A DNA stretch of 64,000 nt from Minisyncoccota bacterium (GTDB lineage Bacteria; Patescibacteriota; Minisyncoccia; Phycocordibacterales; VMEP01): NCBI GenBank assembly GCA_041661305.1, contig JBAZUR010000001.1, forward strand, positions 313,986-377,985. The letters run 5' to 3'. The notes below the pieces were generated by a model, which had not been told where the DNA came from, ran no database searches, and worked only from the letters and a program-made list of their open reading frames with translations. This document shows positions 8,805 through 45,190 of this stretch, piece by piece (position 1 is the first letter of the stretch; every line of letters begins with the position of its first letter). Position numbers and translations under genes: made by a program.

Positions 8805-11150
8805 TTAACGCACCGTCCAGTTATCTTTACTGTTTAGCACCCTTGTCACTCGATTCATAATTTCATCAAGCTCTACATCACTTAATGTTTTTTCTTCGGA
8901 AAGAAAGACGAGATGAAATGCATATGAAATCTTTCCATTTTTTTCAAATCTATCAAACAAATCTATTCGCACAAGCAATTCCCCTGCCTCTTTTTTAATA
9001 ACCCCTAGAACTTCCTCTTCGCTTACTCCGCCCCCCACAAACACAGCAATATCACGAAGCGCGAACGGATAAGGGGAAACATTTTTATAATTTACCGCCG
9101 GCAAAGAAATCTTTGTTGGAACATTATCGCTTGTTGGTTCAGATAATTTTGCAATAAACGCATCAAAGTCTAGCTCAACAATGCATGGCTTTTCGTTAAC
9201 TATGAAATTATCGACGATACTAACTCCGAGGGATTCTTCTATTTCTGCGATAATACTTTTTGCCTCACCAACAAAACTACTCTTCTTTATTCCATCATCA
9301 ATTGCAAAAGATAATTTCCTAACCTCTGTGTTCTTTGTAAACACATTGCCAAATTCAAAAATCTTAATTACTTTTTGCCCAAGAAGAGGAGCATTGTGAA
9401 TGTTTAATTTAAGAGATTCTTCAATCCCCGAAGCAATATTTGAACGTAGTTTTTCTTTATCATCGGCAAGCCCTTTTACGATTGCGACCTCACCTTTATT
9501 GCCAAAAGTGTAAGTCATTACCTCAGAAAACTCGCGAGCAAGTAGTATTTCGCGAATTTTGTTCTCATAATACATACGCTTATGAATTGCTCCGGTATGA
9601 GAAAGCTTTGGTAGGCTTGGCACAAGTTTGTCATAACCCAAAATACGCCCTATTTCTTCGGCCACGTCTTCTTTAATACGGATATCTAAACGTTCAGAAG
9701 GAACATTTATCACATATCGTTCTTCGCTTAAGTCGTCTACCACCCTTCCGTATCCAACTATTTTTCTTGTTGTCGAAAATTCTTCGATTGTTTCTATTAT
9801 AACTTTTCCATGTACTCTTGTAGAGTGAACAATCTTCCCGTCTCCAAGATACATACCAACATGATCAACTCCGCTAGGAACTTTCTCCCCTTTCAAGAAA
9901 TCCACTGATTCAAAATAAATTTTTCCCTCGCCTGAATTAGCAAACACTAAATCTCCGAACCTTAACTCTTCTAAAGTTACTTTTTTTGAAAAAACGTATT
10001 TATCGACAGAAATACTTGGCATCCAAATACCTTTGTATAAATAACTAATCAAGGAAGAGCAGTTAAAAGCAGAAGGTGCGTCTTCGCGCATAATTGAAGG
10101 ATTTTTGTATGGCACCCCGACAACAGCTTTATATGTTCCTGTTATGTAGTCCTGTGGAATTATTTTTTCAAAAGAAAAAGAAAGACGCTTCAATGTACTT
10201 TCTATATCACTATCAGTATATGTAGTTCCTAAAATCAGGTTGAGTTCCGGAAGCGAAATTCCGACATAATATTCTGTATCTTTGCGTGGATATACATCAA
10301 CGACTTCGCTTGCCATTACTTCACCACAAATTTCTTTAATTAAATTCGCTGTCATATAAAGACCTTCTTCCACAAGTGAGTTCGCAATACCGTTTTCAAA
10401 GCGCTTAGATGCATCAGTTCGAAGGTCATATTTTTGTGCTGTTTGGCGAATTAAACTTGGATTAAAGTTGGCACTCTCAAGAACAACACTAGTCGTGTCT
10501 TTGCTTATACCGCTATACTTACCGCCTTTTATGCCAGCAAGGCCGAGTACTTTTTCGTCATCAGCAATTACAAGAGTCTCTCCATCGAGGTTCAAGGTCT
10601 TTTCATCAAGCGTAGTAAACACCTCCCCGTTCTTAGCAAAACGAGTACAGAGCGCACCCTTAATACTTCGTGTGTCATACGCATGCATCGGCTTATTAAG
10701 CGCAAATTGCACGTAATTAGTGGCATCAACTATGTTGTTGATACTTCGCTGTCCAATCGCCTCAAGACGCGATTTTAGCCATTCTGGGCTGTCGCCAACA
10801 AACACACCGTCAATACGCATACTCATAAATCGTGTACAAAACTTTGCATCACCAATTGCGACAATGGGAGCAACTACTGAATCGCCCAAAAAATTATTGT
10901 CTTTTTGAACACGCTCGTCTTCTTTAAAAGTGAGGCTCAAGTCCGCACAGATTTCGCGTGCCAAACCACGATGCCCTAATGCGTCGTGCGCACGGTTTGG
11001 AAGAATTTTAATATCGTAAACTGTATCGTTCGGCAAAGAAATTACCTCCTCTACTTCAAACGACTTTTTGTTTAAAGTATCAGCAATAACAACATCACTT
11101 GGAAGAGTTTCAATAATATAATCTTGTAGCCATTGTTTAGAGAATTTCAT
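8805..11150 (-). CDS. pheT: phenylalanyl-tRNA synthetase beta subunit with an inserted NlpC/P60-like domain; lacks the B2 tRNA-binding domain
   Basis: B1 (ILPNRAHDALGHRGLAREI), B3/B4, B5 (LKRLSFSFEKI), B6/7 (ERLDIRIKEDVAEEIGRILGYDKL) and B8 are recognisable. About 140 aa between B5 and B6 carry an NlpC/P60 signature (FNCSSLISYLY ... FGDLVF ... VDHVGMYLGDGKIVHST). Confidence 0.85.
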   Translation of the reverse strand: MKFSKQWLQDYIIETLPSDVVIADTLNKKSFEVEEVISLPNDTVYDIKILPNRAHDALGHRGLAREICADLSLTFKEDERVQKDNNFLGDSVVAPIVAIGDAKFCTRFMSMRIDGVFVGDSPEWLKSRLEAIGQRSINNIVDATNYVQFALNKPMHAYDTRSIKGALCTRFAKNGEVFTTLDEKTLNLDGETLVIADDEKVLGLAGIKGGKYSGISKDTTSVVLESANFNPSLIRQTAQKYDLRTDASKRFENGIANSLVEEGLYMTANLIKEICGEVMASEVVDVYPRKDTEYYVGISLPELNLILGTTYTDSDIESTLKRLSFSFEKIIPQDYITGTYKAVVGVPYKNPSIMREDAPSAFNCSSLISYLYKGIWMPSISVDKYVFSKKVTLEELRFGDLVFANSGEGKIYFESVDFLKGEKVPSGVDHVGMYLGDGKIVHSTRVHGKVIIETIEEFSTTRKIVGYGRVVDDLSEERYVINVPSERLDIRIKEDVAEEIGRILGYDKLVPSLPKLSHTGAIHKRMYYENKIREILLAREFSEVMTYTFGNKGEVAIVKGLADDKEKLRSNIASGIEESLKLNIHNAPLLGQKVIKIFEFGNVFTKNTEVRKLSFAIDDGIKKSSFVGEAKSIIAEIEESLGVSIVDNFIVNEKPCIVELDFDAFIAKLSEPTSDNVPTKISLPAVNYKNVSPYPFALRDIAVFVGGGVSEEEVLGVIKKEAGELLVRIDLFDRFEKNGKISYAFHLVFLSEEKTLSDVELDEIMNRVTRVLNSKDNWTVR

Positions 11151-12912: not shown

Positions 12913-14553
12913 TTAAATATTTTTCGTTTTGGCAAAAACTGTTGTTTCTCCTCTGTGTTTTGGTGTTACCCAAAAACCCATATAACGACCAAACATCAAT
13001 CTGGTCTGAGCATCAAGTCCTGGTATGGCACCAAAAATGGTGATAGTAACTGGAACCAAAACCCATTGAATAATCATAAAAAAATTATCTCGCCATGTTC
13101 TATTTGACGGACGCGGTGGCAAAAAAGAATAAGAAATCGCGGCGGTAAGAAAAAGACCAAGCATTGAGATAATCATCAAGTTCCTTGTCATGATTGGAAG
13201 ATTATAAGAAAGAACAGTTTGGTTAAAGATGCTCCCACCTATTATAACTGGTAACCAGCCAAGTAAAAATATAATTAGCGGGTTTGTTGAAAGAGACCAA
13301 TAGCCTTCAAGCTGGACCAAAGAAATTCTTATTTTTTGCAATAATGGAATTCTTTTATTTTTTAAAAAATTCATCAAAATATAAGGAACATTTTCTGATC
13401 CATATGCCCAACGTCTGTGTTGCTTGTACACATTCTTCATTGTTTGCCATAAACTTGAGTCGAGATTTGCATCCATCGAAACAGGATAAGCGATTGAAAC
13501 TATTTCATAGTTTCCATCGTGTGCCATTAAAAGATTCCAGAAAATTCTTGAATCTTCAGAAACCATATTCTTCTGCCAATACCCCACCTCATAAAGAGTT
13601 TTAAAAGAAACAGCGTGAGAAGAAAAAGTGACAAGCTTTTCTGGTCTTTCTTGTTGAATCATCTGCCAGAAAGTAGAAGACATGGCAGCGACGCGTGATG
13701 GCGCTGGGGCATCCCAAATATTGTTGTTATATAAAGGTACTGGCTGAAATGAAGATTGATATGGTTTTTCGCAAGTTAAAAAGTGCCAAGTAAGACAGGT
13801 AAAATAATCAGGATAAACTACCGTGTCACTATCAAAAGCAGAAACTAAAACATCTTCGTATGCAATATTTTTCGCATCCAAAATGAGCTTTCTGGCTTCT
13901 TCTGCCATATAAGAAATATTTGAACCTTTACCAGCCATCTCTCCGGGAATACCATCTCTATGTACAGTCAAAAGAACGTCAAAAAACTTTTCTTTATATT
14001 TTGAAAGTATTGCTTCTCCGCGTAGAATTGCATCTTCCCCGGCCCTTTTTTCTGCTCCTAATACAACGATTATTTTCTTCAAATCATATTTTGATTCAGC
14101 AAGTTTTTCGATTGTATTATTAAGCACGTGTTCGCTTTCGTCGTAGTACGGTAAAACAACCAAGTGGTAGATATGCTCATACTTAAGATTCTCAAGCATT
14201 GAAGACCAGTCTACTTTTAGATTATGCTTTATACGCTTCCAATTATGGCGAAGGTGATAAGAGAGATGTGCTGTTTTCAAAACCCAATACACATCAAAAG
14301 CAATTATGAACATTGCGGCAATAGTCGGAGCAAAAATAGACAATAATATTATTGTAATAATCGTCCCCCAAGCCATAAGGCCAGGAATCATTTCGAGAAA
14401 CCGGTACAAACGATAATCCCCCAAAGAAAGATCAGTGGCGCGGCCCACATGAAAATAAGGAGTACTTATTGACTCCTTATTCACCCAAGAAATATTATGT
14501 TTTTTATCTTCTCCTTCCATAAAGTTGTGCTGGTACAAAATACCGAATTTCAT
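12913..14553 (-). CDS. processive GT2-family glycosyltransferase (cellulose/chitin/hyaluronan synthase-like), multi-pass membrane
   Basis: QHRRWAYG matches the QxxRW motif of processive beta-glycosyltransferases. DSD-type motif (SAFDSDTVVYPDY). TM helices at both ends. Confidence 0.65.
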   Translation of the reverse strand: MKFGILYQHNFMEGEDKKHNISWVNKESISTPYFHVGRATDLSLGDYRLYRFLEMIPGLMAWGTIITIILLSIFAPTIAAMFIIAFDVYWVLKTAHLSYHLRHNWKRIKHNLKVDWSSMLENLKYEHIYHLVVLPYYDESEHVLNNTIEKLAESKYDLKKIIVVLGAEKRAGEDAILRGEAILSKYKEKFFDVLLTVHRDGIPGEMAGKGSNISYMAEEARKLILDAKNIAYEDVLVSAFDSDTVVYPDYFTCLTWHFLTCEKPYQSSFQPVPLYNNNIWDAPAPSRVAAMSSTFWQMIQQERPEKLVTFSSHAVSFKTLYEVGYWQKNMVSEDSRIFWNLLMAHDGNYEIVSIAYPVSMDANLDSSLWQTMKNVYKQHRRWAYGSENVPYILMNFLKNKRIPLLQKIRISLVQLEGYWSLSTNPLIIFLLGWLPVIIGGSIFNQTVLSYNLPIMTRNLMIISMLGLFLTAAISYSFLPPRPSNRTWRDNFFMIIQWVLVPVTITIFGAIPGLDAQTRLMFGRYMGFWVTPKHRGETTVFAKTKNI

Positions 14554-14659
14554 GCATCGGTTACGACACTGGGTGTCTCCTAGGCATTACTCGAGCCTAC
14601 TTTATCAAAAATTCACCACCAACGAAAGCCCCGGAAAACACTCCCCAAAAGGTCGGTAT

Positions 14660-15241
14660 TTAAACCTTATCAGCAAAAACAACAAGGCGATTGGAGTAGC
14701 TCTGCATCGTTTTATCCCATACGCCCTCGCAAGTAATCAGATTGAGATGCGCCTTTCCATCATTTGAACTAAATACATTTGGAGCAACTTCTTTCTCGTC
14801 GTATATCCGAATCTCACGCACCTCGAAAACAACACTGTTCCCCTTTCCATCCTCGACATAGATCTTGTCTCCCTTTTTTAGTCTGTTCAGATCGTCAAAG
14901 ACTGCAGGAATATTGTTTTTCCAACCAAAGTGTCCTGTAATAACCGCTGTTCCCTCTTCTCCCGGGCGTGGTCCAATTTTAAGCCACCCCGCGATGTCAG
15001 GCACTTTCGGTGTATCCATTACACCGTCTATAGCAATTCCTACTTCTTCAACAGACGCATCAACTTCAATGGCTGGAATGCGTAGGTTCATTGGCAACAA
15101 TTCTGGATATTCAATAAAAGATACCTTGCTGTCACCTGTTGAATTACGTGGTGTAAAGTAAGAATAAAGAACAGCCGAAACAATGAACCCTATAAGAAAT
15201 ACTATTGCGAGTGTTTGATTTGAAGAGATTTTTGATTTCAT
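14660..15241 (-). CDS. sortase (transpeptidase), N-terminally membrane-anchored
   Basis: N-terminal TM, conserved His (VITGHFGW), catalytic TLxTC-type motif LNLITCEG, conserved Arg near the C-terminus (YSNRLVVF). Confidence 0.8.
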   Translation of the reverse strand: MKSKISSNQTLAIVFLIGFIVSAVLYSYFTPRNSTGDSKVSFIEYPELLPMNLRIPAIEVDASVEEVGIAIDGVMDTPKVPDIAGWLKIGPRPGEEGTAVITGHFGWKNNIPAVFDDLNRLKKGDKIYVEDGKGNSVVFEVREIRIYDEKEVAPNVFSSNDGKAHLNLITCEGVWDKTMQSYSNRLVVFADKV

Positions 15242-15348
15242 AAACTTGAGAGGATTTAATCCTAAGGCGACATCCGTATCAAAACGGAACCATAAACATA
15301 AACTTCACAGTACACTTTTTAATCCTTCGCCAGAAATCTGGTGAGTAT

Positions 15349-17217
15349 TTAAACCGTGCGCTTTTTTAAGACCACCTTGAGTGTAGTTGAGACCAATGCG
15401 ATAACCCCTATCAATGTGGCAACAAACCATAAAGTATTTCCTCTTTCTGGTGGGAACCCTGCGTTAGGAAAACCAACGGTTGCTCCTAGAACTTCAGGTA
15501 CAACAACTGTAGCCGATGAAAAATCGACGGCTGTTAAGCCATTGGCGTAGCCCACGGCTGTGCCTATATTTGTCGTTGTTTGAGTAATATTTGTCTGACA
15601 AGTAAACGACCATGTTTCGTTACTCTCAAGCAAGTTATTACTGTTGATGTCTCCAGGGTGTCCCGTAACGCGTCCTGGTAGACCAGTACACTTGTCGTCG
15701 GTAATGCTGACGTTCGACAATGGCGCTGTTCCTGGATTAGTTACTGTATACGCATAAGTGACAGCTCCTCCGCCAATCGGCAAAACTGATACGCTTGGCT
15801 TTTTTACTAAATGTATTAATGGTGGTGTTACAGCCGAACCAACAACGACAGTTGCATTCGCAGTGTCATATGTGTCCCATCCGTTATAGAAACCACGAGC
15901 AGTTGCTGTGTTTGTTTCAGTTTGAGAAACTGTTTTAGTACAACGGTATATCCATGCTTCAGACAAGTCGAGCCACGAGTTATTATTTGTATCTCCCGAA
16001 ACAAAATTTACCTGACTACACTTGTTATCCTTAACCCATACATTACTCATCGCAACTGGACCTATATTTGTTGCTGTGTAAGTGTAGTTGACTACCCCAG
16101 CACCAAGAGGTAACGCAACAGGACTTGGTATTTTTGTAATGTTAATAAGTGGCAATGGAGAGAAGGTGCTACCGCCCGTAGATGATGGTGTTGGAGGTGG
16201 TGGTGTATCTGTGTTGGTAATAGTACAAGTTTTACTATCGCCCAAAGCAAGAGTCACGCTGCCACTTGAATTACAGTCTCCGCTAAAAATTGCTGTATAT
16301 GATGGGTTCACGTTTTCGCTCACCACATAAGTACCAGCTGAGAGTGAGTAGGCGGTCCCTGGTGTTACAGCTCCAAGCTGTGGACTACCAGAAACATCAA
16401 CACCCGCACTCTTCACATGTATTGTAAAGTCAGAAGAAACGGCCGTCCCTCCACTCGTGTTAATGACAGTCTTAATAACACGGAGAGTGGTTGGCACAGT
16501 AATTGTGTTTGAGTCAGTTGTAACGGTATGACCAAAAGCCAACACTCTTCCTAAGAGGTGTGCAAAATGCCCCAAAGTAACCCCTGTAGAGCCGAGAGTA
16601 TCGGCAATTATATTACCAACAAAGGTTGGTGTCGGTGATGTTGCAGAGTTCGCTCCAATTGAGGCAAGCCCTGTTGGTGTCCAAAACACATCTGAAGCGC
16701 TCGCACCATTTATCAAAACAACCTTGGAGTTAGCTCCTGTTGTAAGCGCACCACCTGATCTGAAAATATATGTCCCAGGACCATCGAGGGTCACAGTGGT
16801 ACTTAGTGCTATATCCATTGTCCCACTACTAGAGTAACAACCTGGAGTATATGTTCCAGACAAAACAACGTTGGCACCAAGAGATGTACACGCCTGACTA
16901 TTTAAATTTGCCAAAGCCGTTGATTGAGCCGCCCCATTTATACATGGCACAACAGCTTGGCTTAGTGGCGTAACGGTAATCCCATTAATTGATATCGGAG
17001 CTGTGTCTGGTGGTGTGGTATAACAAACATTTCCATTAATAGCTGTCTCAAGTCCAGCATTCAAGGAGTTTGTCCAAGTATCAGAAACAATACCGAATGT
17101 ACTGGCAGTACCAAGTGTTGGTGTAGATGCTGCGGAAACGACAACGGGATTGGCAAATCCTGCAACAAACGCGACTGCTACTGCGACTGCTATTAAATTG
17201 TTTTTGAGTTTTTTCAT
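15349..17217 (-). CDS. secreted DUF3494 (ice-binding-like) / DUF11-repeat surface protein with C-terminal TM-plus-basic-tail anchor (candidate sortase substrate)
   Basis: Signal peptide MKKLKNNLIAVAVAVAFVAGFANPVVVSAAS (the track ORF starts at an upstream GTG; the ATG at 17217 is preferred). DUF3494-like LGTASTFGIVS...GNV. Pro-rich linker TPPPPTPS. Two DUF11-like repeats (xxGxxVTYTYTxTNxGxxxxSNV). C-terminus GFPNAGFPPERGNTLWFVATLIGVIALVSTTLKVVLKKRTV. Confidence 0.65.
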   Translation of the reverse strand: MKKLKNNLIAVAVAVAFVAGFANPVVVSAASTPTLGTASTFGIVSDTWTNSLNAGLETAINGNVCYTTPPDTAPISINGITVTPLSQAVVPCINGAAQSTALANLNSQACTSLGANVVLSGTYTPGCYSSSGTMDIALSTTVTLDGPGTYIFRSGGALTTGANSKVVLINGASASDVFWTPTGLASIGANSATSPTPTFVGNIIADTLGSTGVTLGHFAHLLGRVLAFGHTVTTDSNTITVPTTLRVIKTVINTSGGTAVSSDFTIHVKSAGVDVSGSPQLGAVTPGTAYSLSAGTYVVSENVNPSYTAIFSGDCNSSGSVTLALGDSKTCTITNTDTPPPPTPSSTGGSTFSPLPLINITKIPSPVALPLGAGVVNYTYTATNIGPVAMSNVWVKDNKCSQVNFVSGDTNNNSWLDLSEAWIYRCTKTVSQTETNTATARGFYNGWDTYDTANATVVVGSAVTPPLIHLVKKPSVSVLPIGGGAVTYAYTVTNPGTAPLSNVSITDDKCTGLPGRVTGHPGDINSNNLLESNETWSFTCQTNITQTTTNIGTAVGYANGLTAVDFSSATVVVPEVLGATVGFPNAGFPPERGNTLWFVATLIGVIALVSTTLKVVLKKRTV

Positions 17218-17242
17218 TTTTTTATAATATTTAATTATTGCT

Positions 17243-18565
17243 TTAATAATGCTCACTTATAAATCCGCGTGTTATTGTTCCAAAATTTCCCAAAGCCGGA
17301 CTAATCCCTACCCTTGCTTGAAATTCAGCCAAAGCCTCACGAGTCAAGACTCCAAAGTAAGACGTGGCACCAACTCTAGACAGAGCCACAGCAGCCGAAC
17401 CTTTGTTTTCTGAAATCAAAAACTGTTGAAGAGCTAATACATCACTACCTCTACCACCCTCCCTAAGGTTGGCTGTAATTGCTCGGACTTCTTGTCCAAT
17501 GCCACGGGAAGAAGCTCCGGGGATACAGGCAGTGCCCGTTGTTATGCTGAATTTATTTCCCGAAAAACATCCTGAGTCATTCATAGTGGTCACACTTGAA
17601 GAAACGCAATTGCGACCAGTTGTTATGCTAAATTTATTTCCAGAAAAACATCCAGAGTCGGTTTCGTTAACTGAAGATTGAGTTGTATAGGTTGTAGTTA
17701 CAGATGAAGCTGGGGTTGCAGGCACAGCAGGTGTAGCAGAAACCGTAGGAGTCACTGTTGTAACAGCTGGAATTGCTGGTGTAGCGGGAGTAGTGGAAAT
17801 AGAAACCGAAGGAATATTAACGGAATTCGCATCAAGAGTAACCGCGGTCTGTGCAAGTGCTCTACCATTTAACGTTGCGCCAGTATTCAGCACAATCGCT
17901 GTCTGGTCCAAAATATTTCCATTAAAAACGGCTCCTGTGCCGATAGTTGTCTGACCTGCTACTACCCAGAAAATATTACTGGATTGCGCTCCTCCACTTA
18001 AAATAATTTTAACGTTTGAACTAATCTCAAGATTCTGTGCTATCTGAAAAATCCAGACATCATTCGCACCACCTGAAATGGTAACGTCAGATGGTATTGT
18101 TACGCCTGTACCCCATTTGTATAATCCGGGAACAAGTGTCATTCCGCCTATGTTTCCGGCACCTAATTCAGTCGCGGTAGGATTTGTTCTACCCGCACCG
18201 TCAGTGTAGGCAGTTTCCATATTACTGATTGAGGTAGTCATATTAGATGGTGTTGGAACAGCATAATCAGAGGCATACACTTTCCCGGTAACTTGTACTG
18301 ATGTAGAAAATGCTGATGCAGAAGGAAGAATCAACCCGAATCCGGTTATAAGTGTTGCGGCTGCTGGACTAACCCCAATATCACCAACAACTAAAGTGGT
18401 GCCTGTAGTCGATATTCCAGATTTTGCCAAAATAGCAAAATTTCCAGCTGACCCAAGATTAATCACTTCAGGTCCTGCTGCAAGCACAGCTATTGGCGCT
18501 GTTCCTACAAAAACAAGGGAGACAGCCAACGCTACTGCTGATAAGTTTTCATTAATTTTTTTCAT
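17243..18565 (-). CDS. secreted DUF3494 (ice-binding-like) protein with Cys-containing tandem repeats and C-terminal PG_binding_1 domain
   Basis: Signal peptide. AGNFAILAKSGISTTGTTLVVGDIGVSPAAATLITGF matches the DUF3494 start. Two copies of DSGCFSGNKFSITTG. C-terminal LQQFLISENKG...GVLTREALAEFQ peptidoglycan-binding fold. Its stop overlaps the upstream GTG-ORF of the next gene. Confidence 0.65.
   Translation of the reverse strand: MKKINENLSAVALAVSLVFVGTAPIAVLAAGPEVINLGSAGNFAILAKSGISTTGTTLVVGDIGVSPAAATLITGFGLILPSASAFSTSVQVTGKVYASDYAVPTPSNMTTSISNMETAYTDGAGRTNPTATELGAGNIGGMTLVPGLYKWGTGVTIPSDVTISGGANDVWIFQIAQNLEISSNVKIILSGGAQSSNIFWVVAGQTTIGTGAVFNGNILDQTAIVLNTGATLNGRALAQTAVTLDANSVNIPSVSISTTPATPAIPAVTTVTPTVSATPAVPATPASSVTTTYTTQSSVNETDSGCFSGNKFSITTGRNCVSSSVTTMNDSGCFSGNKFSITTGTACIPGASSRGIGQEVRAITANLREGGRGSDVLALQQFLISENKGSAAVALSRVGATSYFGVLTREALAEFQARVGISPALGNFGTITRGFISEHY
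17530..17660 (-). repeat. tandem ~72-nt coding repeat (2 copies) inside the DUF3494 gene
   Basis: gttgttatgct(g/a)aatttatttcc(c/a)gaaaaacatcc(t/a)gagtc seen at about 17540 and 17612. Encodes DSGCFSGNKFSITTG twice. Confidence 0.6.
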
Positions 18566-18771
18566 ATATTATTTTTAAAAAAATGCTTTATTGCTTATTA
18601 AATTTGCACCATTTTTTTATTTCTATTGTTTAAAATAGTTATCTTACGCAGTGATGCCGTTTTAAACGGAAAACCATTACAGTTAATTTTACAGTTGATT
18701 TTTCGTGGCCACATAGAAAAACAGACCTTGGGCTAGGCGTAAAATTAGCCCTTTAGCAAAAGGTTAATTTA

Positions 18772-19275
18772 TTACTTAAATGATTTTAGTAATAAATTTA
18801 TATCTTCAATGATTTCATCAAGACGATGGTTAGATTTAACGTAATACTTGCTTACACCGGAATCAATATATGACTTTATTGTTTTAGGACTTGCGGCATT
18901 AGAAACAACAAAAACGGGTATTTTATTCCACCTTCCACCGTTTGCTTTAAATTTTTTAACAAAAGCAAGACCATCTTCTTCTCCTAGGAGATGATGGTCG
19001 AGCCAAACCGCATCAACTCTCTCCAAGCTTTCGATATATTTAAGAGCTTGTTCAATACTGAGCACAGTAATCGCCTTAGGAGAATTTTTTTCGAGTTTTG
19101 CATTAAAAGCTTCTTCAACACTCCGAGCAGAGATAACTCCAAAACCGCTTTTCTCAAGTTTTGCGTTTATCACCTCGAGCAAAGGTCGATCATCTTCTAT
19201 AACCAAGATTGTTTTCTTTTTACTAGAAATATCTTTTTTTTTGCTGTTAATTTCTTTTAAAGCTTTTTTAATCAT
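18772..19275 (-). CDS. single-domain response regulator (CheY-like receiver)
   Basis: KKTILVIEDDRPLLEV ... VDAVWLDHHLLGEEDGLAFVKKFK ... IPVFVVSN. No output domain. Confidence 0.7.
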   Translation of the reverse strand: MIKKALKEINSKKKDISSKKKTILVIEDDRPLLEVINAKLEKSGFGVISARSVEEAFNAKLEKNSPKAITVLSIEQALKYIESLERVDAVWLDHHLLGEEDGLAFVKKFKANGGRWNKIPVFVVSNAASPKTIKSYIDSGVSKYYVKSNHRLDEIIEDINLLLKSFK

Positions 19276-19310: not shown

Positions 19311-21092
19311 TTATTTTGCATACCTATTCCCCCTTTTTTTAGCTCCTAGTAATGGTAGTGTTACATAAAAAGTAGTACCGCTATCTCCTACCCCTAAAGA
19401 TTTAAACCAAATCTTTCCTCCAGAATTTTCAACAATAGATTTTGCAATATAAAGACCGAGCCCTGTTCCATCAGTATCCTTATTTCTAACATTATCTGCC
19501 CTAAACAACTTGGTGAATATCTTGTCTTGTTGATTCTTTGGAATGCCATAACCTGTGTCGAGAATTTTTAAAAGAATATTTCCTTTCCCTGACCAAGAAA
19601 GAGACATTGCAATTTTTCCTCCATCTGGTGTGTACTTCACAGCGTTTGATAAAATATTTTGCACCACCATTCGCAAATGCTTTGGATCTGCCTGTATAAC
19701 TCCGACATTCTTCTCTGAAGAGAAAGAGAATGATATTTTTTTTATATTAATCTGTGGTTTTTGTTCATCTATGACACTTTGAGCAAGTTTACTTATATCT
19801 ACTGATTCTGGTTCGACGATAAACGTACCGAGTTCCAAAGAAGAAACGTCTAAGAGTGCATTTACCAACTCAACCATGCGTTGATTACTTTTATAAACCT
19901 CATCAAGATATTTTTTTTGTTTATCATTTAATTCTCCTACGTCACCCGCCAAAAGCATTTCAGCATACCAATTAACAGTAGATAACGGCGTGCGAAGCTG
20001 GTGACTAGCAAGAGAGACGAACTCCGTCTTAGCTTTATCTATTTCTCTCTCAGATGTTATGTCCCTAAAAATTTTAATTGCGCCTATCACCTTTCCTTTG
20101 AGAATAACGGGGGTCGCCATAACAGACATGGGAAATTTTGTTTTATCCTTTCTCCTATAATAATAAGTGGAAACGGAGGTAGTTGTGTTATCGTCCAAAA
20201 TTGTTTTTGCCTGATATTGCTCTAAAAAAACAAGAAATCCTTTTTCGTTCTCAAGGAGAATAGTATCGGAAAAAATTTTTCCAATAGTCTCCTCTCTCTT
20301 TTTGCCAAACAGCTTTTCGGCTGTTTTGTTCATTATTATAATAATTCCCTTCTCGTCGGTAACAAGAAGACCGTCACCAATTGACAGTAATATTGCTTCC
20401 TCTTTCACTCTAGCCATTTCTAAATCTTTAGTACGCTCGAGAACTTTATGTTCTAGTGTTTCGTGTGATTTTTTAAGCTTTTTAGCAATCACCGCGAGTT
20501 TACGTCTAGCGTCTTCTTTTTCCTTTGCTGTTACGGCGAGTTTACGTCTAACGCTTTCCCTCTCCTCAGCTGTTGCAGCAAGTTTAGTGGCTGTTACCAA
20601 AAGATTACGGCGAACGTCTTCTTTCTCTTCGGCGGTCACTGCGAGTTTACGGCGAACGTCTTCTTTCTCTTCGGCGGTCACTGCGAGCTTCCCTGCTGTT
20701 ATTGCTAACTTCGCCGCAGTTACTACTAGTTTTGCGGCTGTAACTTCTAGTTTTCTTCGAACAACCTCTTTTTCTTTTGCTGTTGCAGCGAGTTCTTTTG
20801 CTGTGACAGCTAATTTTTCTGCTGTTATTTCTAGTTTGCGCCGAACAACCTCTTTTTCCTTTGCTGTTGCAGCGAGTTTTTCTGCTGTTGCAGCGAGTTC
20901 TTTTGCTGTTATCTCTAGTTTACGTCGAACAATTTCCCTCTCCCTAGCTGTTGTGGCAAGTTTCTTGGCCGTCTCGGCGAGCTCCTTTGCCGTTATCTCC
21001 AGTTTACGTCGAACAACCTCTTTTTCCTTGGCTAGAACCTTAAGGTTTCGAATTATTTCATTGGATACTGAGGTTATAACTTTTTTTTTCAT
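19311..21092 (-). CDS. sensor histidine kinase (cytoplasmic), N-terminal repeat-rich coiled coil plus PAS, HisKA and HATPase_c
   Basis: About 200 aa of tandem KEKEVVRRKLEITAKELAATA-type repeats. PAS (ILLSIGDGLLVTDEKGIIIIMN). H-box VSLASHQLRTPLSTV. N and G boxes (QNILSNAVKYTPDGG, DTGYGI...GTGLGLYIAKSIVE). No TM segment. Confidence 0.8.
   Translation of the reverse strand: MKKKVITSVSNEIIRNLKVLAKEKEVVRRKLEITAKELAETAKKLATTAREREIVRRKLEITAKELAATAEKLAATAKEKEVVRRKLEITAEKLAVTAKELAATAKEKEVVRRKLEVTAAKLVVTAAKLAITAGKLAVTAEEKEDVRRKLAVTAEEKEDVRRNLLVTATKLAATAEERESVRRKLAVTAKEKEDARRKLAVIAKKLKKSHETLEHKVLERTKDLEMARVKEEAILLSIGDGLLVTDEKGIIIIMNKTAEKLFGKKREETIGKIFSDTILLENEKGFLVFLEQYQAKTILDDNTTTSVSTYYYRRKDKTKFPMSVMATPVILKGKVIGAIKIFRDITSEREIDKAKTEFVSLASHQLRTPLSTVNWYAEMLLAGDVGELNDKQKKYLDEVYKSNQRMVELVNALLDVSSLELGTFIVEPESVDISKLAQSVIDEQKPQINIKKISFSFSSEKNVGVIQADPKHLRMVVQNILSNAVKYTPDGGKIAMSLSWSGKGNILLKILDTGYGIPKNQQDKIFTKLFRADNVRNKDTDGTGLGLYIAKSIVENSGGKIWFKSLGVGDSGTTFYVTLPLLGAKKRGNRYAK
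20440..21060 (-). repeat. degenerate tandem coding repeat array in the HK gene, including a perfect 42-nt x2 duplication (20606-20689)
   Basis: ttacggcgaacgtcttctttctcttcggcggtcactgcgagt repeats exactly at 20606 and 20648. Surrounding units run at 80-90% identity. Confidence 0.7.
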
Positions 21093-21099
21093 AAAATTT

Positions 21100-21483
21100 T
21101 TAAATTTCCAGTATTTCTTCTATTTTCTTCACAATAGCATGGAGCTTCCAGTCAGATTTTATTAAATAATGTGTTAATTTATGAACTAGTAAATCGTCTA
21201 CAAACTGTTCGTTGGGGCCACTTAAATTGGTTAAAATAATAATTGGCACCTTCTCTCCCCATTTATCTTTTCTGATGTTCTTTAAGGCCGTTATGCCGTC
21301 CATTTCAGGCATAATAAGATCGAGTAAGATAAGGTCTGGGTGTTTTGAGAGCGCCAAAACCACACCTTCTTTTCCATTTCTAGCCTCAATTGATAGAAAA
21401 TTTTTAATATGAAGAATATCAACTATTGCGCTGCGGAGACTTTTTTCATCCTCGATTATTAGTATCGTTTTTTGTTTTTTCAT
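21100..21483 (-). CDS. single-domain response regulator (CheY-like receiver)
   Basis: MKKQKTILIIEDEKSLRS...LILLDLIMPEMDGITALKNIRK...VPIIILTN. Start taken at the internal Met. The ORF track extends to 21609 with a non-homologous leader. Confidence 0.7.
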   Translation of the reverse strand: MKKQKTILIIEDEKSLRSAIVDILHIKNFLSIEARNGKEGVVLALSKHPDLILLDLIMPEMDGITALKNIRKDKWGEKVPIIILTNLSGPNEQFVDDLLVHKLTHYLIKSDWKLHAIVKKIEEILEI

Positions 21484-21611
21484 AATATTTTCTCTATACA
21501 CATGAGCCGAACAAGAACGAAAACCATTACAACAAAACAAAGAGGGCGCAAAAAAACCTTTTTGGTAATTTTCCAAAAAGATTTTTTTGTTTAACCTAAA
21601 TCTCTCCAATA

Positions 21612-37722: not shown

Positions 37723-39807
37723 CTAACGGCCCATATTGTAGAGTTGCTTAACTTCTGTGTCAGATAACACTCTATTGTAAAGTCTATAATCATCCATTAC
37801 CCCATCAAACCACCCTGGAGAATCCATCTGACAACAATCAGCAACAAATCTACCAAGTGTAAATTTATGAGAACCACCACTTGGGCTATATCCAGTGGTT
37901 GTTGTTTTTACCAATACTCCATTTTCATATAACTTATTCACCCCAGTTACTCCATCTCTAGTAAAAGATACGAGCAACCACCTACCGGCAACTGCGGTAT
38001 TGGGAGAATCCGCAAACCCGTTTGCGTAAATGTTATAACTTAATTTACCAAGATGAAAACCTATTAATCCTGTGCTCCACCCAACACTCTCGTTCATATT
38101 ATGAATAATTGTTCCACCAACCACTCTTGGTTTTACCCACACTGAAACCGAAAATGTGGCTGAGGCTTGCCCCAAAAAAGCCATTGCTGGAGTATTTAAA
38201 TATGTACTAACACCATTAAACTTAAGTCCTTGTCCGAGCTTTCCAGTGGCAGGACTAGACGTAGTACTGAAAGAAACTAAAGTAGCGTTGTTCCCCTGCC
38301 CACTCCTGTCGTAAGCAGTGTTTGAGCCCCAACTTATATCACCTCCGTTTAAACTAAAAACATAAACCAATCCATTATTTAAAAAATTATTAGTTGAAGC
38401 ATTTACTTGAGTCGCGTTTTGTTTATATAGTTGCTGAATTTCAGTTGCCGAAAGAGCGCGGTTGTATACACGTAATTCGTCAACTAAACCGTTGAAAAAT
38501 TCACTTGTTGCTGCGTTATACGCACGAGTTCCTATTGCCCAATTATTATTAGCACAAGTTGTCGTGGTGTTTACAGAAGTACCAACAGAAACACCGTTTA
38601 CAAAACCCTCCATTCCAGACGCACTATAAACCACGGCTACGTGTTGCCATTGATTAGCGACAATTGTTCCACCTAACGCATGATCATTTGTGGAATTTCG
38701 CCCACGTAACCCTGAACCAAAAATAACTATCCCATAATTAAAGCAACTACCACTTGCCCCCTTAGAGAAGATTGTGCCTTGTCCAACAACAGTATTTGGT
38801 TTTATCCACGCACTTAATGTCACATTGCCAGCCGTGCCAACATTAGGCAAAGCCGAGCCATTACCACTAAGATAAGTAGCGCCATTTAAGTTGACAGCCT
38901 TACCATTCTTACCCGCTACCCAAACCAAACTACTGGACGTTGTTGCCGCAGTATTTCCACTTCCACTCATATCATTTGCTTTAGAACCAGCGCCGTCGTT
39001 AAAAGGCCAATAACCAACCAATCCACTATTGCTTACAACTTTTGTTTGGGCCGAGCCAAATTGATAAAGAGTTTTTATTTCTGATGCAGATAAGGCTCGA
39101 CTGTAAATTCTGACGTCATCAATAGAGCCGTTAAAATATCTTGACAAGCCTGCGTCTTTCCCAATGTTAAGCTCATTAGTATCAGTGGTATTAATAATTC
39201 CACCGGGAACAGCGGTATTACACTGAGTACCGTTAATGTATGCTGTTAAATTTGTGCCATTCCATGTAAGTGTGTACAAATTCCAGTTAGTTATTGGAAC
39301 TGAGGGTGTGCAGGTTACTGCCACCCAGCCAGTAGTGTATATATAAAAATTAACAGAGGTAAGATTTTGAGCCGGATGTATTATGTACACATTTCTTTTA
39401 CTTACAATAAAACCATAATCATTCCAAGTACCAGTGGCGCTTTTTGCCCATGCGGATACTGTTAAATTAATCGGATTTAGCGAGCTACTGTTGGCAACCC
39501 TTATATATGAACTGGAACCGTTAAAACTGAGGGCTTTACCGATTTTACCAGACGTCCATAATGGAGTACTCATAAACGTTCCCGTATTTCCATTCCCACT
39601 CATATCGTTAGCTTTTGTTCCAGCTCCATCATTAAGTGGCCAGTACCCGACAAGGCCACTATTACCTACAGATTTAACAGTTGCTGCAGAAGTGATAGAA
39701 AAATAAAAAGAAAAAAATAAAAACGCAAACACAAAAAATATCCCCTTTTTGGAGGTTGAGCCTCCAAAATTACAGTTTTTGTTTTTTTGTATGGAAAGAT
39801 TTTTCAT
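37723..39807 (-). CDS. secreted multi-domain LamG (Laminin_G_3 / concanavalin-like lectin) protein, paralog 1 (694 aa)
   Basis: N-terminal NFGGSTSKK motif plus TM/signal. Repeated units GLVGYWPLNDGAGTKANDMSGNGNT...SAW...DDVRIYSRALSASEI. Ends QLYNMGR. Confidence 0.75.
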   Translation of the reverse strand: MKNLSIQKNKNCNFGGSTSKKGIFFVFAFLFFSFYFSITSAATVKSVGNSGLVGYWPLNDGAGTKANDMSGNGNTGTFMSTPLWTSGKIGKALSFNGSSSYIRVANSSSLNPINLTVSAWAKSATGTWNDYGFIVSKRNVYIIHPAQNLTSVNFYIYTTGWVAVTCTPSVPITNWNLYTLTWNGTNLTAYINGTQCNTAVPGGIINTTDTNELNIGKDAGLSRYFNGSIDDVRIYSRALSASEIKTLYQFGSAQTKVVSNSGLVGYWPFNDGAGSKANDMSGSGNTAATTSSSLVWVAGKNGKAVNLNGATYLSGNGSALPNVGTAGNVTLSAWIKPNTVVGQGTIFSKGASGSCFNYGIVIFGSGLRGRNSTNDHALGGTIVANQWQHVAVVYSASGMEGFVNGVSVGTSVNTTTTCANNNWAIGTRAYNAATSEFFNGLVDELRVYNRALSATEIQQLYKQNATQVNASTNNFLNNGLVYVFSLNGGDISWGSNTAYDRSGQGNNATLVSFSTTSSPATGKLGQGLKFNGVSTYLNTPAMAFLGQASATFSVSVWVKPRVVGGTIIHNMNESVGWSTGLIGFHLGKLSYNIYANGFADSPNTAVAGRWLLVSFTRDGVTGVNKLYENGVLVKTTTTGYSPSGGSHKFTLGRFVADCCQMDSPGWFDGVMDDYRLYNRVLSDTEVKQLYNMGR

Positions 39808-39815
39808 AAAATTTT

Positions 39816-41906
39816 CTAACGGCCCATGTTGTAGAGCTGTTTAAGTTCTGTTGCCGACAGCGCACGATTGTAAATTCGAACATCGTCAATTAAGCCAGAA
39901 AAATAATCTGGAAGATCCCACCTTTTGCCAATATTAATACCCGTACCGCTTGACTGTGGTGTTATCGGAGCATAAACAGATGTGGTGCTCGCGCCGTTTA
40001 TGTATAGGGTTAATATATTGTTATCAAAAGTAATAGAAACGTGAGTCCACTTATTTATTGGCAGTGTTGATGCTCCTGTCTGATACCATCCGGCATTATA
40101 TATACCTCCATAGACATTAGTTGTACCTGAGGTAAATGCAATTACGTAATTTACATAACTAGGATATTGGTCAGAAACAACGGCTGAATAACCTGTTTGA
40201 TTCCCACTTGGGTTTACCCACGCCGCCACTGTAAATTTCGGAAGACTTATTGGAGCTGTTGTAATATATTGACCATTTCCATTGAACTTCATCCCTTGCC
40301 CAATTTTTCCAATAACAGGAGATGATGTGGTGCTCATACCAACTAAAGTCCCATCATTTCCATTTCCGCTTCTATCAAGAGCCTTGTTGGTTCTCCAATT
40401 CATATCCTTACCATCAAAAGACCACAACCCTACAAGCCCGCGAGTAAGCACATTATTTCTAGACGCATTTAAAATACTCTGACCGCCAGATTTATATAAA
40501 TCTAAAATTTCAGAGACAGCTAAAGCACGGTTATAAATACGAAAATCATCCAACTTCCCAGCAAACGGGTATTGCACTCCACCACGCATCCCCATATAAA
40601 AAGCGTCATTACCAAAATTATTCGTATTATTGTTGTTGTGTACTGCGTATGTTGCCGGCGTTTGTAAAACTCCGTCTATATAAAAACTAACTTCGTTGGT
40701 TGCCTTACTTTTATCTAAAATCGCGACATAATGATGCCAAACCCCAGCCGACGGGCGATTGTAGTATGGAATTGAATAGCCAACATTTCCCCTTAACCCA
40801 ACTGCAAAGTATCCAGTATTATCATCTGGTCCAATAACCCACCCCGTGGTACTAACATTAAAATTTGGACTAGTTTCAGCGACAATACTAATACTATTAT
40901 GGAACGAACTTTTATACATCCACCAAGAAACCGAGACAACATTTGTTCCACTTGAGTCGATTGATGGAACACTTACATAATTATTTGTCCCATTAAAATT
41001 TAGTGCATTTCCCAATTTACCAGTCGCCCATGTGAAGCTATTTACAAGAGAACCGTTATTTTTATTTCCAGAAGAATCCCCCATTTGAGTTCCTGTTCCT
41101 TCGTTCATCGGCCAATATCCCACCAAGCCACTTTTCCCAGAAACAGCGGACTTAATTAACACAGCCCCCCCTGCTTTATATAAATCTGAAATTTCAGAGG
41201 CCGATAATGCGCGATTATAGATACGTACTTCGTCAATCACCCCTTTAAATGGGTATCCAGTAGAAGAAAAACTTCCGATTTCAATACCACCACCAGAAAT
41301 ATTTATACTTCCTGTTGCCGCACAAGTTTGTTTCAAAACCCCATCGACATACACTCTCATATTTGTTCCGTCGTATGTTGATACCGCATGATGCCATACA
41401 CCTTCAGACGGTTCTGTTGTCGCACAATCTTGCATAGCAGGATGTTCTATTCTCATCTTTAACCCGCCTTCAATAAACATCGAATAAGAGGTGTTCACTG
41501 TTGCTTTGTGAACCAGCCATTTGTTTGTACCACTGCCAACATCTTTTTTATACCAAGCAGAGAGTGTAATACTACTAGTAATATCAAAAATTGGTTTGTT
41601 GGGAACAGACACAGAACTATTTACACCGCCGAAATAAAGAGCCTTACCAAAACGTCCTTGTGTCCATGTTGCGTTCGAGACGGTTCCTGTATTTCCATTG
41701 CCTGAAATATCGCCTGTTTTAGTCCCTACACCATCATTAAAATTCCAATACCCCACCAATCCACTTTTACCAACATTTTTTATTGATGCAGAAAAAGTTA
41801 CAAGTGGCACAGATATAAAAAACAAAACCAAACACGCAACCAGAATTTTGGAGGCTTCGCCTCCAAAATTCTGGTTTATGTTTTTTTGTGTATAAGTGTT
41901 TTTCAT
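39816..41906 (-). CDS. secreted multi-domain LamG (Laminin_G_3) protein, paralog 2 (696 aa)
   Basis: Same architecture: NFGGEASKI N-terminus, three GLVGYW...RIYNRALS units, QLYNMGR end. 8-nt gap to paralog 1. Confidence 0.75.
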   Translation of the reverse strand: MKNTYTQKNINQNFGGEASKILVACLVLFFISVPLVTFSASIKNVGKSGLVGYWNFNDGVGTKTGDISGNGNTGTVSNATWTQGRFGKALYFGGVNSSVSVPNKPIFDITSSITLSAWYKKDVGSGTNKWLVHKATVNTSYSMFIEGGLKMRIEHPAMQDCATTEPSEGVWHHAVSTYDGTNMRVYVDGVLKQTCAATGSINISGGGIEIGSFSSTGYPFKGVIDEVRIYNRALSASEISDLYKAGGAVLIKSAVSGKSGLVGYWPMNEGTGTQMGDSSGNKNNGSLVNSFTWATGKLGNALNFNGTNNYVSVPSIDSSGTNVVSVSWWMYKSSFHNSISIVAETSPNFNVSTTGWVIGPDDNTGYFAVGLRGNVGYSIPYYNRPSAGVWHHYVAILDKSKATNEVSFYIDGVLQTPATYAVHNNNNTNNFGNDAFYMGMRGGVQYPFAGKLDDFRIYNRALAVSEILDLYKSGGQSILNASRNNVLTRGLVGLWSFDGKDMNWRTNKALDRSGNGNDGTLVGMSTTSSPVIGKIGQGMKFNGNGQYITTAPISLPKFTVAAWVNPSGNQTGYSAVVSDQYPSYVNYVIAFTSGTTNVYGGIYNAGWYQTGASTLPINKWTHVSITFDNNILTLYINGASTTSVYAPITPQSSGTGINIGKRWDLPDYFSGLIDDVRIYNRALSATELKQLYNMGR

Positions 41907-41914
41907 AAAATTTT

Positions 41915-44900: not shown

Positions 44901-45190
44901 GATAGTAAATTTTCAACTCTTCTCGCTCCCTCAAAACGCACTTCCCCGCTTTTCGCTTGCCTAAACAAATTTTCCCAATCTTGCACATACGCCGTGGAAG
45001 CTCTTGAAAATACTGGATTTCCTCTACCTGTCTGAAGAATTATAGAATTCGTTAGATTAGCCTCAAAACTTGGTTGAAGAGAAGCTTGAACTGTCGCGGC
45101 AGCAGACACAGCGACGGGTGAGGTAATAAAAATTAAAAACAAAAAACAATTAGTAATTAATTTTATTTTATTTTTAAAATTTATTTTCAT
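41915..45190 (-). CDS. secreted multi-domain LamG (Laminin_G_3) protein, paralog 3 (1091 aa) with extra N-terminal beta-rich region
   Basis: Signal peptide MKINFKNKIKLITNCFLFLIFITSPVAVSAA. C-terminal two LamG units about 85% identical at the DNA level to paralog 2. QLYNSGR end. Confidence 0.75.
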   Translation of the reverse strand: MKINFKNKIKLITNCFLFLIFITSPVAVSAAATVQASLQPSFEANLTNSIILQTGRGNPVFSRASTAYVQDWENLFRQAKSGEVRFEGARRVENLLSSTEDFSTSWTPVSLTVTANQTTSPIGTNTADLFTTSGVGGQRVVQNAGAVNGTAVTYSVWIKGGTATNAKLLIYDTSAGATRIGQQVTLSTSWQRFSVTATNLVSGNNHYFYIYIDENVANGAGATAYVWGAQAENVTGQSNQNPSDYVSKGVLSSPYHGANVDGVKYFDRQNGNTVLSNVVTANTGAKISTNTLRGYLAEGARTNLALYSEQFDNAAWSNNAEGLTVSVDNVVAPNGTMTAEKLVETADTTLHRRGQSIASSAGTLRRFSVYVKSAGRTKARGWSWAGGDTGQQTFNLSTVTATGNLNPTIQSVGNGWYRCSFDIPSSHSTSVVFGPVDDTHVSTDAYLGDGSSGIYVWGAQIESAPFESSYIPTTSASVARSGDLLAYPTSGNIGERAFSLYLEMNRKNNNGDSYPSKSPIQIGSYASNSMINFGGYSGTNLSLLVDFGTVWDVASNPFSITYNTPTKIALRLANNLTTFSSFKNGAKSADAVSGNAKTLNWAGSPSYIYIANSGTVDANQSINVKNVKIWPRALTDAQLTGMTKNTEYFSLQSIAPKTTIKTPPKSGLVGYWNFNDGAGAKAGDISGNGNTATLVGSPSWITGKLGKALNFNGSTNYATAGSSSSLNLSDTITISVWVKSPDWHPTASWRAIVDKSSYGIYVWPSSNILRFQLVLATTGIVTVDSGVLNTNQWYHVVGTYDKNAGANNFKIYVNGVLHDSSTQSNSIVAGNALNIGLYSGSYFNGIMDDLRIYNRALSVAEIQQLYKQNATQVNTSQNNFLTNGLVGLWSFNGKDVNWGTNKALDRSGNGNDGTLVGMSTSSSPVVGKIGQGLNLNGDSYVSISGSPANGSASVFAWVNPYFLGTCPGSSPNTCEIAMIAGNFLFEIGNGTVNIYGYLFNTPQWVSISNAGIKINTWMHLGFTYDQTTLRVYLDGVQIGTANVPGVMGSGGGFSIGGANNFRLFKGKIDDVRDYNRALSATEVKQLYNSGR

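Follow-up and report, generated by a model that had tools for sequence, protein, structure and literature searches.

On the minus strand of the stretch of Minisyncoccota DNA analyzed here (64,000 nucleotides, referred to as the window), three adjacent genes quite probably form one module: a class-F-like sortase, its own substrate with a sorting signal of the LPXTG type, and a distant paralogue of this substrate that would bind the cell wall non-covalently. The sortase gene (193 aa) occupies positions 14660-15241, the substrate gene (protein 2, 635 aa from a GTG start) positions 15349-17256 and the upstream paralogue (protein 3, 440 aa) positions 17243-18565. The first-pass annotation had recognized a sortase and two DUF3494 proteins here, and all three open reading frames (ORFs) were confirmed with the same coordinates and strand. 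For protein 2 there is an alternative start, an ATG at 17217, which yields the 622-aa product of the NCBI record. The module is surrounded by housekeeping genes, and the organism is, by the source name of P0002, an uncultured Candidatus Paceibacterota (Patescibacteria/Candidate Phyla Radiation, CPR). The module is ordinary in kind, though conserved across the whole group.

The sorting signal is located at the C-terminus of protein 2, which reads ...ATVG-FPNAG-FPPERGNT-LWFVATLIGVIALVSTTLKVVL-KKRTV-stop. The pentapeptide FPNAG (aa 596-600; 15457-15471, minus strand as for all features of the module) is followed by a hydrophobic membrane-spanning segment (aa 609-630; 15367-15432) and the basic tail KKRTV (aa 631-635; 15352-15366). 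This tripartite layout, already pointed out in the first-pass annotation, is borne out by the sequence and by the AlphaFold2 (AF2) model, in which aa 608-634 form a helix. At the motif the DNA reads GGT TTT CCT AAC GCA GGG TTC CCA CCA GAA AGA GGA, which translates to G-FPNAG-FPPERG; the peptide ATVGFPNAGFPPE represents this signal. Among the 93 ORFs of at least 80 aa in the window, a hydrophobic-plus-basic C-terminal tail is found in one only, protein 2, and this protein adjoins the only sortase seen.

The identity of the pentapeptide emerges from the homologues. In the 120 best of them, nearly all complete C-termini read PGLPNTG[FL]PP, followed by about 20 hydrophobic residues and a [KR]-rich end (KKR). 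Because these tails align in register, with LPNTG in the very column of FPNAG, we read the latter as an LPXTG equivalent with two minority substitutions. The tripartite tail is retained in 163 of 190 homologue C-termini, and 161 of these 163 have at least two K/R within their last eight residues. Across the 163 tails the pentapeptide has L (88%) or F (12%) at position 1, P (100%) at position 2, N (72%) at position 3, T (87%) or A (12%) at position 4 and G (100%) at position 5. The flanks are conserved as well: V-[AV]-x-P(95%)-[GK] precedes the pentapeptide and [FLI]-[PAG]-P(71%)-[ED] follows it, then a spacer of about 11 residues leads to the helix, and typically three K/R stand at the end. 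An open search for xPxxG ahead of the helix, covering 83 signals from 80 loci, returned the same picture (position 1, L in 72 and F in 10; position 2, P in 83; position 3, N in 53; position 4, T in 67 and A in 12; position 5, G in 83). An alignment of 45 sequences shows no variation at P597 and G600 and hardly any at N598; FPNAG retains the P, N and G of the family consensus LPNTG. Both departures, L to F and T to A, correspond to a single nucleotide change each (TTT versus CTT/TTR; GCA versus ACA). The divergent recognition motif considered in the first-pass annotation thereby gives way to an ordinary LPNTG column in which F (position 1) and A (position 4) are recurrent minority states. Judged from these alignments, FPNAG appears to be a drift variant of the family consensus and no new signal class, and FPPERG appears to be a semi-conserved spacer past the scissile bond and no second motif.

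Gene order points to the same pairing. In a substrate-seeded set of 80 loci (79 loci of +/-6 kb from species-representative genomes, plus the window), a sortase is present in 74, and in 64 a signal-bearing DUF3494/DUF7507 protein is followed within 1.5 kb by a same-strand sortase, mostly across a gap of less than 100 bp. The record titles of the 79 loci name Paceibacteria lineages, Komeilibacteria, Doudnabacteria, Liptonbacteria, Peribacteria and the complete SR1 genome RAAC1. The reverse approach, in which a sortase alignment was used against metagenome contigs, gave 71 loci with enough upstream DNA; 53 of them have a DUF3494/DUF7507 substrate with a signal immediately upstream of the sortase, and in several further ones a related LPNTG protein is present. 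Since the pair is conserved from both search directions, we regard it as a conserved and probably dedicated module and not as a chance adjacency, in support of the earlier proposal that protein 2 is the substrate of the neighboring enzyme. A scan of positions 14300-19000 for promoters and terminators gave counts at the level of shuffled sequence, and the three genes are not separated by any convincing terminator, which is compatible with one operon, yet no evidence for it.

Several of the related loci show arrangements of their own. In SR1 bacterium RAAC1_SR1_1 (L021, CP006913.1, 6010-8578) the substrate-sortase pair is intact under genetic code 25, with the signal FPKTG and an NLITC sortase 8 bp downstream, and in two loci labelled Peribacteria (L016, L032) the substrate is split into several ORFs under code 11. 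Elsewhere the first sortase has a second pair downstream of it, in which a DUF7507 protein of about 210-340 aa with an LP[ND][TA]G-like motif and a helix is followed by a longer sortase of about 357-383 aa with a C-terminal hydrophobic segment of its own (L007 11269-13326, L017 7334-9360, L036 4842-6622, L055 1858-3662, L057 4867-6893, L058 9380-11551, L062 8213-10355, L064 7541-9564); in L058 this second pair is a single 723-aa ORF. The arrangement recalls pilus operons and is absent from the window.

The enzyme itself is a sortase by its Pfam and TIGR matches. The Pfam model PF04203 (MEROPS C60) matches its catalytic domain (aa 47-193) over profile positions 1-125 of 125 with an E-value of 2.9e-26 and 92.1 bits versus a threshold of 26.6, and TIGR01076 scores 43.1 versus a cut-off of 39.35. 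A single putative N-terminal hydrophobic anchor (aa 10-30, TLAIVFLIGFIVSAVLYSYFT; 15152-15214) is readable in the sequence. His104 in the TGH motif (14930-14932) and Cys171 in the NLITC motif (14729-14743) align with the corresponding residues of solved sortases, presumably His120 and Cys184 in the case of Staphylococcus aureus SrtA. The first-pass annotation was right to call the protein a sortase but described it as a TLxTC enzyme, to which the actual NLITC is a loose fit. Arg185 (YSNRLVVF; 14687-14689) lies 14 residues past the cysteine. Its position is consistent with the sortase beta8 arginine by conservation and spacing, as the profile alignments to PDB structures end at the cysteine and leave it unaligned to a solved structure. 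All three residues, whose absence from an alignment had been named beforehand as an argument against the proposal, are present and invariant across 43 homologues, and they are at least 90% conserved in 68 cassette sortases.

Classification by hidden Markov models (HMMs), which had been suggested as a check, places the enzyme nearest to class F by a wide margin. The NCBIfam model class_F_sortase (NF033748) reaches 128.1 bits, below its curated cut-off of 166, while the scores of the other classes are 40.9 (C), 31.1 (GN), 29.6 (E) and 23-24.5 bits (D). Homologues that NCBI names class F sortase score just 119-128 bits too, which is why we use the term class-F-like; the enzyme seems to belong with these homologues, on a branch that the model reaches only below its cut-off. 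For each column of 68 cognate sortases, we also calculated the mutual information with the state of the motif (T/A at position 4, L/F at position 1). No association was found, as the top columns all fall in the variable N-terminal region. That no sortase column tracks T/A or L/F is consistent with an enzyme tolerant of both.

In its AF2 model (mean predicted local distance difference test, pLDDT, of 82), protein 2 has the layout of a head on a stalk, comparable to wall-anchored adhesins of Gram-positive bacteria. A putative signal peptide (aa 14-42, MKKLKNN...PVVVSA/AS; 17131-17217) is suggested by the n-region KKLK, a hydrophobic core, the VSA site and an N-terminal helix in the model. The DUF3494/ice-binding-like head (aa 45-253; 16498-17124) gives a partial match to Pfam Ice_binding (E-value 3.2e-19, 69.8 bits) and is modeled as a beta-solenoid with a flanking helix (aa 49-253). 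When the model was compared to the PDB with Foldseek, the top 26 matches were DUF3494 ice-binding proteins, with target-normalized template modeling scores of 0.75-0.80 for 6eio and 7bwx; the structure prediction recommended in the first-pass annotation thus returns the DUF3494 fold for the head. The stalk comprises a SpaA_2 prealbumin-like beta-sandwich (aa 257-346; 16219-16488; PF19403, 35.3 bits versus a cut-off of 25), a first DUF7507/DUF11 beta-sandwich (aa 371-472; 15841-16146; Pfam DUF11 and DUF7507, NCBIfam TIGR01451) and a second DUF7507 beta-sandwich (aa 479-585; 15502-15822; PF24346, E-value 2.8e-15), which the model delimits to aa 257-350, 371-472 and 482-585, respectively. Between the last sandwich and the C-terminal helix, aa 590-607, which include FPNAG, are disordered. 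In the 45-sequence alignment each sandwich has one invariant or near-invariant Lys/Glu/Asn set (K262/E314/N348, K375/E433/N449, K485/E547/N563), the invariant lysine sitting on the first strand, and conserved cysteine pairs are found in the stalk (C413-C439, C523-C553). These patterns suggest stabilization by intramolecular isopeptide bonds and disulfides.

The family name of the head should not be read as a function. The NCBIfam ice-binding equivalog IBP_CFB scores 240 and 20 bits for the two DUF3494 proteins versus a cut-off of 400, and the relatives stem from many Patescibacteria assemblies whose record titles (for example Lake Baikal deep water, lake, palsa, fen) are not obviously ice-associated; ice binding is therefore not implied.

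Taken as an LPXTG-type pair, the two genes allow for the following mechanism. Protein 2 would be exported by Sec and retained in the membrane by its C-terminal signal, composed of FPNAG, a 9-residue linker, the hydrophobic helix and KKR. The membrane-anchored class-F-like sortase, equipped with His104, Cys171 and Arg185, would cut FPNAG between Ala599 and Gly600 by attack of Cys171 on this bond, hold protein 2 as a thioester on the same cysteine and pass it to an amino group of a wall precursor. The outcome would be a DUF3494 beta-solenoid head presented on a stalk of three immunoglobulin (Ig)-like domains and covalently linked to the wall, most likely an adhesin. The upstream paralogue would show a similar head, bound to the wall non-covalently via PG_binding_1. 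What the analysis shows are the domains, the catalytic residues, the motif register and the conservation of gene order. The chemistry, with its cleavage site and acceptor, is extrapolated from what is established for sortases, and attachment to the wall and a role in adhesion are likewise inferred.

This paralogue, protein 3, is composed of a signal peptide, a DUF3494 head, a Pro/Thr linker, two Cys-loop repeats and a PG_binding_1 domain. The head (aa 45-250; 17816-18433) matches PF11999 over its full length (E-value 1.2e-75, 254 bits). The PG_binding_1 domain (aa 372-440; 17246-17452) is at the threshold of PF01471, scoring 21.1 bits within the whole protein and 23.3 bits in a scan of the C-terminal part alone, where the cut-off is 23; orthologues with near-identical tails carry PF01471 in precomputed annotation, which supports the earlier statement that in the upstream protein a peptidoglycan-binding domain takes the place of a sorting signal at the end. 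The two loops, CFSGNKFSITTGRNC (17525-17569; aa 306-320) and CFSGNKFSITTGTAC (17606-17650; aa 333-347), lie between the two domains and follow the 15-residue, cysteine-bounded pattern C-x2-G-N-x-F-S-x2-T-G-x2-C. One to three copies recur in the orthologues of protein 3 in L004, L031, L074, L076 and L079, and no Pfam family matches the loop.

The first-pass annotation had further proposed that proteins 2 and 3 are covalently and non-covalently attached versions of the same fold. The two share 26% identity over the signal peptide and the beta-solenoid and are thus distant paralogues only. The notion of two anchor types fits some homologues of protein 2 in which the tail is swapped: five proteins (P0014, P0027, P0039, P0061, P0072) combine DUF3494 and the DUF7507 stalk with a PG_binding_1 tail and have no LPXTG signal, and the same architecture is found at L007 8260-11250 and L017 4480-7311. 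Given that PG_binding_1 replaces the LPXTG signal on the same stalk, anchor modules have been swapped on one scaffold within the family.

Outside the window, natural fusions of substrate and sortase exist. Three genome loci encode single chains (L008 6934-9261, L012 6906-9197, L070 6043-8523) in the order passenger, LP[NK][TA]G, short linker and sortase domain, without the helix and tail of the substrate and without the anchor of the sortase. An exhaustive HMMER search with one fusion (P0081) against 1.84 billion representatives of 50% identity clusters revealed at least eight representatives with this layout (P0242, P0245, P0249, P0250, P0345, P0372, P0341, P0371), in which a DUF3494/DUF7507 passenger is followed by [LFPT]P[NK][TA]G, a linker that has no transmembrane segment and measures about 7-90 aa, and a sortase domain. 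As the fusions keep the pentapeptide and lose both transmembrane segments, the pentapeptide, and not the linker or the helix, is the element tied to the enzyme. An AF2 model of P0081 from a mixed alignment has confident passenger domains and a pLDDT below 50 for aa 595-696 (the linker and the first half of the sortase), and is therefore silent on docking of LPNTG in cis. The searchable literature yielded no description of such natural sortase fusions.

These observations allow for a broader reading, which we regard as possible rather than probable: the module may be a single-substrate system that is found throughout Patescibacteria, builds their main wall-linked adhesin and tolerates Thr or Ala at the scissile position, with the fusions processing themselves or each other. 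The fusions would then be the natural counterpart of engineered sortase-fusion ligation constructs, in which the coupling has repeatedly collapsed into one polypeptide. For the verdict on the window module itself the fusions make no difference.

Several points weigh against the interpretation of the module as a sortase with its own LPXTG-type substrate. Within its family the window signal is an outlier at three positions, namely -2 (V, where 95% have P), 1 (F) and 4 (A). The LPXTG-anchor models TIGR01167 (NCBIfam, E-value up to 1) and PF00746 (Pfam, E-value up to 0.01) do not match the tail; both generic models are short and tuned to signals of the Firmicutes type. The enzyme stays under the class F cut-off (128 versus 166 bits), and cleavage of FPNAG by this sortase family is a prediction from sequence. 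That the pairing is probably dedicated follows from gene order and not from a genome census. No peptidoglycan-synthesis gene is located in the window, where PG_binding_1 occurs in two secreted proteins and where one NlpC/P60 domain and a weak SLT match are also present; from these domains and from general knowledge of Paceibacteria we infer that a wall acceptor is present.

The alternative that survives best is that the sortase joins protein 2 to another protein, either in a pilus-like fiber or to the PG_binding_1 paralogue, or releases it by hydrolysis. The SpaA-type domain of the stalk is typical of Gram-positive pilins and adhesins, and the second pair described above, a longer sortase with a small LP[ND][TA]G DUF7507 protein, gives some related loci a pilus-operon-like appearance, whereas a single sortase and a single substrate are present in the window. 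The paralogue lies directly upstream of the substrate in 22 of the 80 loci, and is thus missing from most. Fusion proteins without a C-terminal membrane segment would also fit a role other than wall anchoring. Against this, the sortase is class-F-like and not class C, the one characterized class F member being a housekeeping enzyme (PMC8225981), and K262, K375 and K485 would pair with invariant E/N like isopeptide triads, unlike a pilin motif. On balance we consider such a joining or releasing function unlikely.

Less likely still is that FPNAG is a decaying, non-functional signal and that protein 2 simply stays in the membrane via its C-terminal helix. That three residues of one short motif depart from the consensus (V at -2 and the F and A of the pentapeptide) could be taken as a sign of decay, yet FPNAG is kept unchanged in relatives at 96% (P0004), 93% (P0006) and 72% (P0009) identity, among others with FPNTG at 83% (P0007) and LPNTG at 70% (P0008). 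Both F and A recur independently in many lineages beside an intact sortase, and Ala variants in particular (LPNAG, LPKAG, LPSAG, LPDAG and LPAAG in addition to FPNAG) are found in many unrelated ones. With P, N and G intact in the signal and the catalytic residues intact in the sortase, these comparisons argue for a stable variant, and decay seems highly improbable.

The remaining option, an exosortase- or archaeosortase-type signal (PEP-, PGF- or PEF-CTERM-like) in which GFPPE is recognized and the sortase is adjacent by accident, which the first-pass annotation had offered as the second choice, can be set aside with near certainty: DUF3494 proteins with PEP-CTERM tails do occur in Arctic metagenomes (pfam11999_pfam07589, PMC9957290) and the segment past the pentapeptide is semi-conserved ([FLI]-[PAG]-P(71%)-[ED]), but no PEP-, PGF- or PEF-CTERM or other NCBIfam CTERM model matches protein 2 at an E-value up to 1, a Pfam scan of the 35 largest window ORFs brought up no exosortase or archaeosortase, xPNxG provides the invariant columns while the downstream linker, with FPPERG, varies in sequence and length, searches started from either gene find the substrate tightly linked to a sortase, and the fusions retain LPXTG and discard the helix.

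Some other features of the window deserve mention. Just upstream of the module, a PAS/HisKA histidine kinase (19311-21092, minus strand) is flanked by two response-regulator genes (18772-19275 and 21100-21609). About 200 of its N-terminal residues are near-perfect repeats (KEKEVVRRKLEITAKELA...), which give rise to a spurious 287-aa ORF on the opposite strand (20302-21165, plus strand). The phenylalanyl-tRNA synthetase beta chain (8805-11150, minus strand, 781 aa) has an NlpC/P60 domain (aa 359-466, Pfam E-value 1.4e-10) inserted between its B3_4 and B5 domains, an unexpected combination. A 6183-aa ORF (45205-63756, minus strand), which matches Peptidase_S74 (endosialidase chaperone) within its final 1200 residues, lacks a C-terminal sorting signal, and immediately downstream three large Laminin_G_3 (concanavalin-like) proteins are encoded on the same strand (37723-45190); jointly they have the appearance of a cluster of large putative surface proteins.

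With the module, Patescibacteria, whose envelope biology is poorly known, gain a concrete and widely conserved sortase-substrate pair. Its extended consensus P-[GK]-[LF]-P-N-[TA]-G-[FLI]-x-P could serve to annotate substrates and to test for covalent wall attachment. The group is thought to live on other cells, and the DUF3494-headed, Ig-stalked surface protein is a candidate for mediating attachment. Protein engineers and researchers of the sortase mechanism may find the natural substrate-sortase fusions of interest. A sortase family has been reported in more than half of CPR genomes (PMC6744442), and architectures combining DUF3494 and DUF11 have been listed in metagenomes (PMC9957290); no paper on a link between DUF3494 and sortases was found in the searchable literature. 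A 2026 preprint on a new CPR pilus system deals with donor-strand-exchange Pam pilins, mentions sortase in passing and was set aside as not relevant.

Compared with known systems, the enzyme shares with class F sortases (NF033748) the best-scoring class model, the single N-terminal anchor, the His-Cys-Arg triad and, by prediction, the LPXTG-type signal. It differs in coming from Patescibacteria and not from Actinomycetota, and in appearing dedicated to one substrate family, whereas the class F sortase of Propionibacterium (Cutibacterium) acnes uses LPXTG as a housekeeping enzyme (PMC8225981). The substrate resembles Gram-positive LPXTG proteins in its tripartite layout of a pentapeptide, a hydrophobic segment and a basic tail, and in its putative N-terminal signal peptide. 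Even Ala at position 4 has a precedent, as two LPxAG proteins are counted among the surface proteins of S. aureus (PMC3436756). The window signal departs from the Gram-positive ones by Phe at position 1, by a spacer to the helix that is longer, at about 9-12 residues, and by family-specific flanks (Pro at -2 in the family, Asn at position 3, [FLI]-x-P past the Gly). The C-terminal order of short motif, helix and basic tail is also shared with the PEP-CTERM/exosortase and PGF-/PEF-CTERM/archaeosortase systems; the conserved residues are those of LPXTG, and the module is not a member of these systems.

Sortase genes that lie beside their own substrates are familiar from SrtB with IsdC (NPQTN) and from the class GN 'marine' sortase with its MSEP-CTERM target. 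Here, too, the enzyme gene is found directly beside the substrate gene and the signal has a family-specific flavor, but the pentapeptide stays within LPXTG, and both the substrate family (DUF3494 with DUF7507) and the host lineage are different. For the architecture of protein 2, the closest parallel is SfIBP_1 of Shewanella frigidimarina, which has its DUF3494 head on tandem beta-sandwiches and, in the account of a later paper citing Vance et al. (2018), is a proposed ice adhesin (PMC9957290). Its structure (PDB 6bg8) is among the top Foldseek matches, and both proteins would present a cell-tethered DUF3494 beta-solenoid on an Ig-like stalk. In protein 2 the order is reversed, the head being N-terminal and the anchor C-terminal, and anchoring would be accomplished by the sortase.

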